Shown here piece by piece: positions 39,564 through 42,914 of a DNA stretch of 64,000 bases. The notes beneath the pieces are model-generated. The model had not been told where the DNA came from. It did no database searches and saw only the letters and a program-made list of their open reading frames with translations. The position numbers and the translations under genes are program-made. Every line of letters starts with the position of its first letter. The first letter of the stretch is position 1. The DNA lies in assembly GCA_000996895.1 (NCBI GenBank), contig LCBB01000005.1, forward strand, positions 11,421-75,420. Direction: 5' to 3'. The DNA comes from a candidate division WWE3 bacterium GW2011_GWC2_41_23. GTDB taxonomy: Bacteria; Patescibacteriota; WWE3; UBA101185; UBA10185.

Positions 39564-40150
39564 GGATAGTCTATTTTTTTAGAGAACAAAAACTGTGTGT
39601 GTGCTCCGAGTTTTTCTTCAAATTTATTTTGCAGTTCTTTGTCTATTTTTCCGGTGTCGAAAACTACCTTGCTGTACCCATCGCCTGTGGATTTCCACAT
39701 AACCAATGCTGAAGATAAAGCCGCTATCTCTTCCAACCTATCATTTCCTTTTACTTGGACAAAAAGTTTAGGTAAATATCCGTGTCTTATGTAAAAATTC
39801 TCAGCGTCTCCGAGCGCTCCCAGTAAAACTTCTTTTTTACCGTGTTTCCGGGCAACTTCTTCCATCGCTAAAAGTAGCTTTGACCCAATTCCCTTTCCTC
39901 TCGCCGTTTCTGAAACCGCAAGCTCTCCTATTAAAAGTGTTTCGGTGTCTTGATCCGAAGAAAATATCACCCCTTCGAGTATTCCAGCAGGTTTAAACAC
40001 CAAAACATATTCAGGATTTTTTGCGTAAACGTTTTTATAGAATTGTAGGTTTCTGGGATGTGTGGCGTCGAAGTTAAGTATGTTATCGGCGAAGGTATAA
40101 GCGGTTTCGAGTTCAGTAGTGTCTTTTGGTGGTATAAGTGCGGGTTCCAT
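39524..40150 (-). CDS. GNAT family N-acetyltransferase
   Basis: Acetyl-CoA motif ARGKGIGSKLL. Confidence 0.7.
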   Translation of the reverse strand: MEPALIPPKDTTELETAYTFADNILNFDATHPRNLQFYKNVYAKNPEYVLVFKPAGILEGVIFSSDQDTETLLIGELAVSETARGKGIGSKLLLAMEEVARKHGKKEVLLGALGDAENFYIRHGYLPKLFVQVKGNDRLEEIAALSSALVMWKSTGDGYSKVVFDTGKIDKELQNKFEEKLGAHTQFLFSKKIDYPQSNNASSSSVSW

Positions 40151-40230
40151 AATTTAATTATACTTCACTATCGCATAGGAAGTTAGACCATAAGAGACCA
40201 CGCCTTTAAGCTAGTTGGTATAATACACAC

Positions 40231-40734
40231 ATGGAAAAAAATAAAAATGTAGAAATTTTGACCGTAACCCCCGAGCATTGGGAGCTATATAAAGACATTA
40301 GACTGGACGCCTTGCAATGTGAACCACAGGCGTTCGGAAGCAGCTATTCCGGAGAAAAAACATTTACAAAAGAACAGTGGTTGGAAAGAATCGCAAACCG
40401 TTACAACGCAATTGCAGTTGAAGACGGGAAAGCCGTCGGTACTATGGGTGCTTACATAAGTAATGATGAGGTAGGAGAGATAGCAAACATTGTTGGTGTT
40501 TTCGTTACAAGTAAGGCACGCGGCCAAGGTTTAGGCTCAAAATTATTTGACTTTGTTTTAGCTAAAGTAAAAGAAGACCATAAATTATCAAAAATAACGT
40601 TAACTGTGAATAATGAGCAATTATACGCTGTGGGATTATACGAAAAGCTGGGTTTTAAGACCGTAGGCGAAGAAACTACATTAATGGGAGACGGAAAAGA
40701 ACATATAGAGCTTTTAATGGAACGCCGCGTATAA
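40231..40734 (+). CDS. GNAT family N-acetyltransferase
   Basis: Acetyl-CoA motif ARGQGLGSKLF. Confidence 0.75.
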   Translation: MEKNKNVEILTVTPEHWELYKDIRLDALQCEPQAFGSSYSGEKTFTKEQWLERIANRYNAIAVEDGKAVGTMGAYISNDEVGEIANIVGVFVTSKARGQGLGSKLFDFVLAKVKEDHKLSKITLTVNNEQLYAVGLYEKLGFKTVGEETTLMGDGKEHIELLMERRV

Positions 40735-40794
40735 AATTCTTCCGGCTGTTACCGCAAAGTAATAAGAAATTTATAAATTTTCTCACACGTACCC

Positions 40795-40822
40795 TTGACA
40801 AATATTTTAAAAAAGGTAATAT
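40795..40822 (+). promoter_or_regulatory. near-consensus sigma70-like promoter at the start of an ORF-free region
   Basis: -35 TTGACA (40795-40800), 16-nt spacer, -10 TAATAT (40817-40822). Confidence 0.5.
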
Positions 40823-40941
40823 CACTTCCACGTCTTTCAAGGAACTTTAAAAACAGAAAAGTAGCGAGGTAATGCAAATTACACTCCCGGAAAACTAACG
40901 ACGACGCGAGTCATCATTAGCAAACCCCGGAACAGGACACC

Positions 40942-41078
40942 AAGGTAAAGGAAAAATGGAACCGCAAATCACTACCATCCCCTTAAAAGGAAAAATAGAG
41001 ATACAAGGTCCCGTCATCCCTACTAGTAGCGAAAGCCACTACCCCCTTAAGACCGGTTGTTACACCCGAAGGATAGTT
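40942..41078 (+). repeat. copy A of a ~135-nt imperfect direct repeat inside the candidate ncRNA
   Basis: Conserved blocks caagg.aaaggaaaaa, actaccatccccttaaaaggaa, ccactagt.gcgaaagc.acta and acccgaaggata are shared with 41293-41432. Intervening segments differ. Confidence 0.7.
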
Positions 41079-41292
41079 TGGAAGTCATGGAGCAGATTGG
41101 TGAAAACTAATTACTTCACGTAAACTTGCTAAAGATAACCGGAAGGGAATCGATAGAAGTATAACGTACCCGGACAAAGCGCAAGCCCAAATCCCCGTGT
41201 GACGCCCTGTATAAGGATATCAAACAAATTTCGTAAAGAGCCCAGAGGTAACACTCAAAGCTATTTCCAGCACCACACCCTGGAACTAAGAC

Positions 41293-41432
41293 TCAAGGCA
41301 AAGGAAAAACCGAGCTTCTGACAAATACTACCATCCCCTTAAAAGGAAGATAGAACTCCAAAGCTTAGTAATTCCCCACTAGTCGCGAAAGCAACTAAAC
41401 CCTTGCACTTAGTTACGAAGACCCGAAGGATA
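41293..41432 (+). repeat. copy B of the ~135-nt imperfect direct repeat
   Basis: See copy A. Confidence 0.7.
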
Positions 41433-41845
41433 AAAAATAAAGAACCGAGAAAGTCACACGAGCCAGGATCAGTGAATGTATGGAATATAGGGAACCCAGT
41501 CTGAAAGCGAAAGCTATCATACTCCCCTAAATACCAATACAAACATGAAGTCCTGGCTCTACCCTTTTTTAATAAGTATTTTCGAGTACTCAAATAGTGG
41601 AGACAATTTCAAAAAAAACGGAGGAATCTGATTTGTGTTTTTAGCACCTGAGGATGTCAAAGAAATAATTTTCCTTTAACCTGAACGCCTTTTTGGGAGA
41701 AACAAAAAACCGCTTGGTAGCGGTTAGATTAATTAGTTTCGTCCGGTCTATTAATTTTAAGACATTTGCAAAAGGGCATTTACTTCCTTAAGTATTTACT
41801 TTTGTAAAATGCGAGTCAATGATTTTCGGATTTAAAAAACTTTTT

Positions 41846-41886
41846 ACGCACAAACAAAAAATAACGGGCAGTGAATTCACCGCCCG
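41846..41886 (-). terminator. rho-independent terminator of 41909-42502
   Basis: Minus strand: hairpin cgggcggtgaattcactgcccg followed by ttattttttgtttg. Confidence 0.6.
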
Positions 41887-41908
41887 CTAATTTTATTTTC
41901 AGCTCAAG

Positions 41909-42502
41909 TTAGTTGCTGAGTGTGTTTTGAGAAGGCATTCCTCTAAAACCTTGACCATCTCCGAAGCCACCACGTCCTCCGGGACCTCCGCGTCCTCCAA
42001 AGACGTCATATCCTAGTATTCCGTCCAAATCTACTCCCAGTGAGTCTACCCAAGCCTCTAAATCGGCTCTGCGTTGTTCCATAGAGTTTCTCATCTCATC
42101 CATTTTGGTCTGGCGCTCTTCTGCACTTAGATCAAACCAGCCGGCTGTGTCCCCTGCTCTATTTTGTACAGGTTCCATCTCAGCAAGTTTGGCTAAGATC
42201 TGAGTTTTCTGATCTTCTGTTAATTTACCGTCTTGAACTGCCTGGGTAAGTTTTGCCTCAATTTCTGCGTGACGGGTTGCCTGCATTTCCTGCATGCGCG
42301 TACCTCGCTCGGCCTGAACTTCTTCCATGACTTTGTCCACTTCGGTTGTGTTTAGACCAAATTTATCTACAAGTTTCTGAACTATTGGGGGATACTTACC
42401 CTGATATTGAGCAAGCACCTTGCTGTTGGTGAGGAAGATGGCACCTCCTAAGGCTATTGCCACAGCAACACCACCTAAAATTAATGTATTTCTTTTTTTC
42501 AT
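41909..42502 (-). CDS. periplasmic Spy/CpxP-like (LTXXQ-motif) protein with Gly/Arg-rich tail
   Basis: Start set at MKKRNTLILGGVAVAIALGG (signal/anchor). LTXXQ-like repeats (KLTQAVQ, KLTEDQKTQI). C-terminal GGRGGPGGRGGFGDGQGFRG. Confidence 0.5.
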   Translation of the reverse strand: MKKRNTLILGGVAVAIALGGAIFLTNSKVLAQYQGKYPPIVQKLVDKFGLNTTEVDKVMEEVQAERGTRMQEMQATRHAEIEAKLTQAVQDGKLTEDQKTQILAKLAEMEPVQNRAGDTAGWFDLSAEERQTKMDEMRNSMEQRRADLEAWVDSLGVDLDGILGYDVFGGRGGPGGRGGFGDGQGFRGMPSQNTLSN

Positions 42503-42587
42503 TCTTTTTTCTCCGAAATTAATTACTAAATGGAAATTTAACAGTTGTTGCTGAGGGTTTGCTGAGACTTGCGCGTATAATAAAAGT

Positions 42588-42914
42588 ATGGAACCCGCTA
42601 CACCCCAAAAAACAATATCAGAATCAGCCTCCAAAGTAACAGTATTCCTCCTTCTAATGTTCTACCCGGTAGGGCTTATCGTTATGTGGTTTTGGCCGAA
42701 GTGGAAATTATGGATAAAGATAGGTTTAACTTTAATACCTGTAATTTTTATCGGAGCGGGGTTAATCGTACTTGCTTCCCTGGATTCCACACTTGATGAT
42801 AAGTTAAGACCTCTAAGAAATTGTATTGATGCCTGCAAGTCAGATACAGAAAATAAACTGTGTGTCCGCACTTGTGAAGAAAAGTTTATTGAAGATAACA
42901 CTTTAGGCTACTAA
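42588..42914 (+). CDS. small membrane protein with Cys-rich C-terminus, hypothetical
   Basis: Two TM helices, then CIDACKSDTENKLCVRTCEEKF. Confidence 0.4.
   Translation: MEPATPQKTISESASKVTVFLLLMFYPVGLIVMWFWPKWKLWIKIGLTLIPVIFIGAGLIVLASLDSTLDDKLRPLRNCIDACKSDTENKLCVRTCEEKFIEDNTLGY

Follow-up and report, generated by a model that had tools for sequence, protein, structure and literature searches.

A putative large two-domain structured RNA encoded by a stand-alone gene in WWE3 bacteria

The window analysed here is a stretch of 64,000 nucleotides (nt) of contig LCBB01000005.1 from GW2011_GWC2_41_23, a bacterium of the candidate division WWE3 (Katanobacteria). It contains a 1174-nt gap (40735–41908) in which the open reading frames (ORFs) are all short and non-conserved. 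A first-pass annotation made from the sequence alone had noted the absence of a credible ORF here and proposed a non-coding RNA of about 750 nt with an internal direct repeat, and the question raised by the locus is what this gap encodes. We found that window 40795–41570 (+) is a stand-alone gene for a structured non-coding RNA, which is under purifying selection as RNA rather than as protein. The molecule comprises an invariant 5′ segment, a first domain (~215 nt), a central domain (~150 nt), a second domain (~205 nt), which is an ancient duplicate of the first with the same helix order, and a 100-nt 3′ hairpin. That this is a real structured-RNA gene on the + strand is considered highly probable, and the strand was assigned because of the GNRA loops, the conserved promoter and the U run.

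Conservation, boundaries and covariation

Homologues were traced by a pattern scan of a genome collection plus nhmmer, as well as by synteny via homologues of the GNAT and C39 peptidase proteins. The GNAT protein was found on many near-identical contigs, including NCBI MEWI01000011.1 (GCA_001773275.1), and a partial GNAT of 100% identity is assigned to a candidate division WWE3 bacterium. Five distinct RNA sequences were obtained in all, namely that of the window (40827–41568, 742 nt) and four others, 70–94% identical, in related WWE3 contigs, which are referred to by locus as L008 (same as L017 and L047; 744 nt), L045 (same as L049; 726 nt), L048 (706 nt) and L050 (745 nt). In the genome collection, the pattern CAAGGNAAAGGAAAAA N12-30 CATCCC, which consists of bases common to both internal copies, matched 34 loci. 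Two of these were confirmed as real by nhmmer, L017 and L045, both from WWE3 (RIFOXYD1_FULL_43_17 and RIFOXYB1_FULL_43_24), and the other 32 were discarded as chance matches to the A-rich pattern. The metagenome pattern TCCCCTTAAAAGG N27-47 GCGAAAGC yielded a single match (L007) on an unrelated high-GC contig, which was therefore attributed to chance in a collection that evidently lacks these WWE3 contigs. Scans of viral contigs returned nothing or chance matches, and blastn against phage and plasmid collections returned nothing. Searching genomes and metagenomes for the conserved blocks thus recovered WWE3 homologues and none outside one sub-clade, and all five variants originate from groundwater metagenomes.

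A sigma-70-type promoter is found at 40795–40822 (+), with a −35 hexamer TTGACA (40795–40800), a 16-nt spacer and a −10 hexamer TAATAT (40817–40822). It matches 10 of 12 consensus positions and was the top site of the region in a promoter scan, in agreement with the near-consensus promoter annotated earlier. The −35 hexamer is identical in all homologues, and the −10 hexamer, which reads TAATAT, TAGTAT or TATATT, always lies 4 nt ahead of an invariant TCCACG; the spacer and the upstream sequence are divergent. From this promoter, we infer a transcript of ~740 nt (about 40830–41568, +), which would end where conservation drops at the U run. The sequence of L006 is 100% identical to the window through 41564, compared with ~85% directly past the U run. 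The homologues span TCCACGTCTTTC to CTGGCTCTACCCTTTT with lengths of 706–745 nt, and the 5′ segment TCCACGUCUUUC (40827–40838, +) is the same in all five sequences. The composition of the element (A 37.7%, C 24.5%, G 19.1%, T 18.6%; AT skew 0.23–0.41) reflects a real A+C asymmetry of the strand, albeit not the extreme bias initially described.

Between genome pairs, the element is 70–94% identical, whereas third codon positions of the adjacent C39 gene reach 48–65% in these pairs. Substitutions lack a 3-nt periodicity (p = 0.10–0.95, vs p < 1e-16 in the C39 gene), and insertions and deletions are mostly of 1–2 nt. Because it is conserved above synonymous sites, aperiodic and affected mostly by such short insertions and deletions, the region is neither coding nor a pseudogene. 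The sole plausible ORF, at 40956–41123 (55 amino acids, with a Shine-Dalgarno-like AAAGGA), was considered as a gene and rejected, its ATG being replaced by ATA in L045 and L048. The proposal of a ~750-nt non-coding RNA is thus supported by conservation, the lack of a coding signature, a covarying fold and conserved boundaries. Neither protein-coding relatives nor a lack of conservation, which had been named as potential refutations, was seen among the four homologues.

RNAalifold analysis of the five sequences yielded a consensus fold of 174 base pairs, 17 of them with compensatory changes. In this whole-RNA fold, 95.0% of the alignment cells are paired, compared with 32–45% when the partners were slid by 1–3 columns. 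The 17 compensatory pairs contrast with 0–3 after sliding and with a mean of 6.1 after shuffling, and none of 500 shuffles reached 17. For the repeat unit, both copies were aligned across all genomes (alignment A6, 10 units), and a hand-drawn fold of the unit core was evaluated against it. Here, 87.8% of the cells are paired (30–45% slid), with compensatory changes in 7 pairs and 20 cells (1–3 pairs and 2–7 cells slid). On the evidence of these alignments, the fold is conserved and supported by covariation, both in the whole RNA and in each repeat copy, which upholds the earlier view of a duplicated structured RNA domain.

Internal repeat and fold of the RNA

A repeat finder detected four blocks on the + strand that are common to both copies and 353–357 nt apart: B1 (CAAGGYAAAGGAAAAA, 40941/41294, 16 nt), B2 (ACTACCATCCCCTTAAAAGGAA, 40971/41327, 22 of 22 nt identical), B3 (a 32-nt block around ACTAGTNGCGAAAGCNACTA, 41017/41373, 84% identical) and B4 (ACCCGAAGGATA, 41064/41421, 12 of 12 nt identical). 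BLAST of copy against copy gave 74.6% identity over 134 nt (E = 1e-13), and the 64 kb contain just two occurrences of the 22-mer and two of the hairpin block, compared with 0.00 and 0.06 expected from shuffles. The two direct repeats of ~135 nt originally annotated are thus genuine as to their shared blocks and similarity but not as to their size, since the structural unit is a multi-helix domain of ~205–215 nt (40861–41075 and 41230–41432), each with its own closing helix and, after it, the ACCCGAAGGAUA block. With a covariance model built for this unit (R1), exactly two units were identified per RNA and none elsewhere. As a separate observation, the first halves of copies 1 and 2 are identical at 76 of 79 positions in L045 (183–336 and 531–684, −) and its identical counterpart L049, compared with ~65% in the other genomes, a sign of gene conversion between the two internal domains.

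Domain 1 (40861–41075, +) comprises helices H2, Ha1, Hb1, Px, Py, Pz and Pw. Its closing helix is H2, in which GUAGCGAGG (40861–40869) pairs with GGUUGUUAC (41055–41063) and changes occur on one side only, with GUAGCGA, GUAACGA or GUAACAA opposite an invariant UUGUUAC. The Ha1 hairpin (40868–40885), which has a GCAA loop, covaries (GUAAU/AUUAC, GUAAC/GUUAC and UGAC/GUCA), and Hb1 (CCGG, 40887–40890 with 40927–40930) encloses a GCGA hairpin (40895–40920). Pz1 changes from GG/CC to AA/UU and Pw1 from U-A to G-C; across the repeat units, Pz occurs in three quite distinct versions (UGGAAC/GUCCCG, UAAGAC/GUUUUA and GAGCUU/AAGCUU), and two adjacent pairs change in Pw (U-A/G-C and C-G/U-A).

The conserved blocks are accommodated within these helices. 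In the unit model, both AAGG motifs of B1 (CAAGGUAAAGGAAAAA, 40941–40956, +) pair as Px and Py, with CCUU (41045–41048) and UCC (41018–41020); RNAalifold provides an alternative register (AGG 40949–40951 with CCU 41019–41021). B2 (ACUACCAUCCCCUUAAAAGGAA, 40971–40992, +) makes up the upper part of Pw together with the apical loop. B3 (41017–41041, +) is the hairpin UAGUAGC-GAAA-GCCACUA with a conserved A·C mismatch, and pair 108/120 of alignment A6, which belongs to this block, occurs as U-A, C-G and U-G. Finally, B4 (ACCCGAAGGAUA, 41064–41075, +) contains GGAU (41071–41074), which is complementary to the apical AUCC (40976–40979), with 39 of 40 cells paired and almost invariant bases. AUCC/GGAU is perhaps a pseudoknot in each domain, a candidate that covariation neither supports nor refutes owing to this invariance.

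The central domain (41076–41225, +) is closed by GUUUG (41076–41080) and CAAAC (41221–41225). It contains an almost invariant hairpin, GAUAACC-GGAA-GGGAAUC (41134–41151), which is unchanged apart from one C-to-U substitution in L050, a GNRA hairpin, GC-GCAA-GC (41179–41186), and a variable arm (41097–41130), which is altered in length and sequence in L045 and L048. Its helices, numbered 13–18, are 85–100% paired, and four of them show compensatory changes.

Domain 2 (41230–41432, +) is closed by H2′, in which UUCGUA (41230–41235) pairs with UACGAA (41414–41419). This helix has two compensatory pairs (G-C to A-U and U-A to C-G), and its other versions are UUCAUA/UAUGAA and UUUGCA/UGUGAA. The domain further includes Ha2 (41239–41262), Hb2 (UCCAG 41266–41270 with CUGGA 41280–41284), in which an A-U pair changes to G-C, and Pz2 (GAGCUU/AAGCUU), along with B1 (41294–41309), B2 (41327–41348), B3 (41373–41397) and B4 (41421–41432). 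An alternative helix between CCCAG (41242) and CUGG (41281) was dropped, as covariation backs the local hairpin UCCAG/CUGGA (41266–41284). The GAAA hairpin of the second B3 has another sequence in L045, with the A·C mismatch kept, and is deleted in L048, where a 21-nt stretch equivalent to window 41378–41398 is missing (L048 11082–11218). This arm of copy 2 is dispensable, given that L048 has lost it. By analogy, the rebuilt or deleted hairpin and the variable central arm may be likened to the peripheral arms of folded RNAs.

The 3′ domain (41460–41570, +) consists of a long irregular hairpin of ~100 nt (41460–41559), UACCC and a U run (41565–41570), with 5 nt between stem and U run. At its base, GAGCCAGGAU (41460–41469) pairs with GUCCUGGCUC (41550–41559), which is followed by UACCCUUUUUU; these 10 pairs are G+C-rich and invariant among the homologues. 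The long-range stem reported before and the sequence after it were thus recovered within a few bases of their original placement. The hairpin is capped by a GNRA loop, AGC-GAAA-GCU (41506–41515), in which the cap pair changes from A-U to U-A and the loop from GAAA to GCAA, and the U run has six U in the window and four in L008, L048 and L050. UAUGG (41479) and CCUAAA (41527) were evaluated as an 11-nt receptor for a GAAA tetraloop and rejected: L008 and L050 have UAUAGG instead, and the consensus fold pairs both segments in ordinary helices.

At the opposite end, GUCUUUC of the 5′ segment has complementary purine-rich stretches close to the 3′ end. Its best candidate partner (41449–41455) makes 7 of 7 pairs in four homologues and 6 of 7 in the window, that is, 34 of 35 cells are paired through A/G and U/C changes. 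Other candidate partners are 41425–41431 and the segment after H2′ in L008 and L050. We propose that GUCUUUC forms a long-range closing helix with one of these three purine-rich 3′ candidates. In addition, AGAAGGG (41448–41454) can pair with CCCUUUU.

Possible mode of action and competing explanations

Our favoured reading is that this is a new stand-alone structured RNA acting in trans as a compact two-domain scaffold, and we put the probability of this whole statement at about one in two. Confidence in the functional part, a trans-acting two-domain scaffold or ribonucleoprotein component, is a shade lower. The RNA would be made in quantity, fold into a compact pseudo-twofold body and act in trans. 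The fold would be held by the long-range 5′/3′ helix, the docking of GNRA loops into helices and, perhaps, the AUCC/GGAU pseudoknot of each domain, and, through its two homologous domains, the RNA would most likely offer a protein or other ligand two equivalent surfaces to bind. The RNA may thus operate as a ribonucleoprotein scaffold like the large orphan bacterial RNAs, not as a regulator of a neighbouring gene. Action in trans is suggested by the downstream gene, whose orientation is convergent in the window, L048 and L049 and whose identity changes with each lineage.

More tentatively, the RNA could found a class of its own, that of a large, ornate and self-folding RNA specific to the candidate phyla radiation (CPR)/Patescibacteria. 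An ancient duplication would have given rise to a single-chain pseudo-dimer stitched by GNRA loops, with a biochemical job of its own—catalysis or RNA-only/RNA-protein assembly—rather than gene regulation. Few bacterial non-coding RNAs exceed 500 nt and adopt elaborate conserved folds, and each class of large RNA (ribosomal RNAs, RNase P, group I/II introns, OLE, GOLLD, ROOL and HEARO) opened its own line of work. CPR bacteria, most of them uncultured, have genomes of ~1 Mb, and their biology is for the most part deduced from protein genes; a promoter-driven RNA of 740 nt amounts to close to 0.1% of such a genome. The two diverged copies of 210 nt represent an unusually clear natural duplication of an RNA domain and provide an internal comparison for solving the fold.

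Several points weigh against the scaffold. The existence of the transcript, like its ends and abundance, is deduced from the sequence, the neighbourhood offers no conserved gene suggestive of a protein partner, and the tertiary contacts, including the pseudoknot, would rely on invariant bases. The sequences that test the consensus structure are also those from which it was built. These five sequences represent only three or four lineages, among which recombination and gene conversion have occurred; independent compensatory events are therefore few, and significance of the R-scape type cannot be claimed. The 3′ hairpin would be a non-canonical intrinsic terminator because of its length of ~100 nt, the 5-nt separation, the run of four U in three homologues and its absence from the list produced by the terminator scan. 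Moreover, the opposite strand folds lower in energy (see below). Finally, L051–L056, the nearest WWE3 relative outside the clade, with a C39 peptidase 66% identical, have no RNA at the syntenic place. Since this place is empty in the nearest sampled outside relative, the RNA is probably accessory, or else located elsewhere in that genome, and would not be essential to WWE3. Synteny of C39 and SHOCT is kept in L051–L056, with a gap of ~400 nt between SHOCT and a gene for 77 amino acids (L051 7967–8368). There is likewise no RNA beside the 54%-identical GNAT homologues (L010 and L011) or the UMP-kinase neighbours (L061–L063).

The alternative that survives best, although unlikely, is that of a ribozyme or self-processing RNA, whose ornate conserved fold would build an active site, with abundant GNRA loops and invariant junctions as in group I/II introns and RNase P. 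The size, the density of GNRA loops, the long invariant stretches in junctions and loops, and the invariant central hairpin GAUAACC-GGAA-GGGAAUC are consistent with such a role. However, no ribozyme, intron or RNase P family of Rfam matched even at E <= 10, the element interrupts no host gene and lacks flanking exons and target-site features, and the sequence gives no hint of a particular reaction.

Slightly less probable still is a sponge of the CsrB/RsmZ type, in which GGA and AAGG motifs would sequester a small RNA-binding regulator. Both are indeed enriched, with 18–21 GGA per RNA vs ~12 expected (1.6–1.7-fold; 21 vs 12.2 in the window) and 11–12 AAGG vs ~5–6. CsrB-type RNAs carry GGA motifs in hairpin loops, whereas in the consensus fold only three of the 21 GGA of the window RNA are fully unpaired and only one lies within a hairpin loop. 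AAGG, for its part, is engaged in pairing with CCUU and UCCC segments inside the RNA (Px and Py), the long conserved blocks are unrelated to GGA, and there is no Rfam match to CsrB or RsmX/Y/Z. A CsrB-like sponge is thus disfavoured because GGA is mostly paired in the fold.

A cis-acting element—a giant leader, riboswitch-like or attenuator—or an antisense regulator of an adjacent gene is improbable. All five RNAs lie 3′ of one gene cluster that encodes a dUTPase, a C39 peptidase and a SHOCT protein, followed by GNATs and/or a UMP kinase. In the window, the gap is preceded by a GNAT gene for 167 amino acids (40231–40734, +) and followed by a convergent gene for 241 amino acids without a Pfam hit (41909–42634, −). 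In L008 and L050, the next downstream gene is on the same strand, 350–420 nt past the RNA, which would allow regulation in cis; in the window, L048 and L049, however, it is convergent. A cis-regulatory role is unlikely since the downstream gene is convergent or variable, and the RNA is equipped with a promoter and a 3′ hairpin with U run of its own. There is no overlapping gene to which it could be antisense, and no riboswitch or leader family matches it.

It is very improbable that the functional RNA is encoded by the G+U-rich − strand. Both strands were folded, and the − strand is lower in energy: the alignment gave −171.6 kcal/mol with 208 pairs, 21 of them compensatory, vs −116.8 kcal/mol, 174 pairs and 18 compensatory for the + strand, and the single-sequence z-score was −4.3 vs −3.9. 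This lower energy stems from 194 G·U cells, as expected of any G+U-rich strand, and folding energy does not decide the issue because such a strand always folds lower. Furthermore, none of its 11 hairpin loops is GNRA or UNCG, that is, a stable-tetraloop type, and no conserved promoter is found on the right-hand side, where the sequence diverges. On the + strand, by contrast, 6–7 of 11 hairpin loops are GNRA tetraloops, or up to eight in 740 nt when Ha1 and the copy-2 hairpin are counted. Four of these sites change yet stay GNRA (GCGA/GAGA, GCAA/GAAA at two sites and GAAA/GCAA), and the conserved promoter keeps a fixed distance from the invariant 5′ segment.

The first-pass alternative of a decayed pseudogene or mobile-element remnant without a function of its own was not borne out and is just as improbable, for its patchy presence among related WWE3 genomes, the recombination mosaics around and within the locus and the internal direct repeat are set against conservation above that of synonymous sites next door without codon periodicity, compensatory and GNRA-preserving changes, an invariably single copy at one syntenic place without transposase, integrase or terminal repeats nearby, and the absence of matches in phage, plasmid and viral collections.

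The surroundings of the RNA afforded further observations. Recombination mosaics occur at its 3′ edge (L006 11338 onward, L049 6571 onward and window 41565 onward): in L006, an RNA 100% identical to that of the window is joined to the flank found downstream in L050, and in L049 a divergent RNA body (~74% identical) is joined to the downstream flank of the window. Similarities of the RNA and of C39 disagree, with values of 93.5% and 72%, respectively, between the window and L050. At 41649/41650, the window lacks 39 nt (CGTTATCAAATTCCTCCTACGAAAGAGGGGGAACCCAGC) that are found in five otherwise identical assemblies (L001–L005, from NCBI, JGI and ENA; ~11419–11457 in L003), and this deletion removes one arm of a long hairpin. 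A second conserved element is located just past the RNA (window 41610–41690; L008 6790–6880; L048 12256–12385). On the − strand, it reads as a long hairpin, GGAGGAAUUUGAU...AUCAGAUUCCUCC, then eight U, has no Rfam match, and looks like a convergent terminator that would shield the RNA gene. It is separate from the RNA, given that in L048 it is ~900 nt away, behind a gene for 284 amino acids. Further downstream, a candidate micro-ORF of 16 amino acids, MPFCKCLKINRPDETN (41729–41779, −), with the variant MPCCKCLKINRPARN in L006 and L050, has a Shine-Dalgarno AAGGAAG, a promoter-like site (41819–41791) and a clean terminator (41725–41708); its small size keeps it out of the ORF list.

Relation to known RNA families

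The RNA was compared with the Rfam 15 set, which includes RNase P, transfer-messenger RNA (tmRNA), signal recognition particle RNA, 6S, group I/II introns, OLE, GOLLD, ROOL, HEARO, raiA, riboswitches and CsrB/Rsm. A scan of the whole window at the gathering score returned no match in the RNA region; the sole matches were three transfer RNA (tRNA) genes elsewhere (7374–7456, 8126–8198 and 8634–8705, all −). At E <= 10, window 40600–41950 gave only chance-level matches, all far below gathering: RF00184 at 41525–41586 (13.8 bits vs 42) and RF00180 at 41541–41554 (12.7 bits vs 41), both in the 3′ hairpin/terminator, and the remainder downstream, at 41730 and beyond. The four homologous loci had none at the gathering score, L008 (5900–7200) had none inside the RNA at E <= 10, and ARAGORN detected no tRNA or tmRNA within 40000–42500. 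The earlier impression that no known family is represented thus holds for Rfam 15. A full-text literature search retrieved no description of a large non-coding RNA in WWE3 or Patescibacteria and, with no match in Rfam or the literature, the RNA is new as a family.

No gene for TnpB, IscB, an IS110 recombinase, a reverse transcriptase, Tas, a transposase or an RNA-guided nuclease was found nearby. The neighbours encode dUTPase, C39 peptidase, SHOCT, GNATs, UMP kinase, a response regulator and small proteins without a Pfam hit. Each contig carries a single RNA copy, with no second one in the 64-kb window, and the features of a mobile-element or RNA-guided RNA were not found.

The closest likeness in general design is to OLE (RF01071), GOLLD (RF01998) and ROOL (RF03087), which also exceed 500 nt, are multi-domain, and have many covarying helices and long invariant stretches. 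Like the WWE3 RNA, they are stand-alone genes not tied to the regulation of a neighbour, with a narrow or patchy distribution and an orphan biochemical role. The WWE3 RNA differs in having no sequence or structure match to them in Rfam 15, in its host, a WWE3 bacterium of the CPR, and in being represented by only five sequence variants. Unlike OLE (oapA/B/C) and GOLLD (prophage), it has no associated protein genes or prophage context. We know of no internal duplication of a ~210-nt domain in OLE, GOLLD or ROOL. By electron cryomicroscopy, these three form ordered homo-oligomers (PMC12286853), and the duplication of two domains could by analogy replace a homo-oligomer within one chain.

CsrB/RsmZ RNAs share with the WWE3 RNA the stand-alone gene and an excess of GGA and AAGG over expectation. 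In the WWE3 RNA, though, these motifs are mostly paired, and it is two to six times longer, with extensive conserved structure, and has no match to them in Rfam. Finally, the glycine riboswitch, with its tandem aptamers, also has two homologous folded domains in series, each with the same conserved core nucleotides. Its WWE3 counterparts, by contrast, are four-to-five-helix domains of ~210 nt with a central domain of 150 nt between them, and there is no expression platform, no conserved co-oriented downstream gene and no match to a riboswitch model. The likeness to tandem aptamers nonetheless suggests, by analogy, that the WWE3 RNA may harbour two equivalent binding sites.

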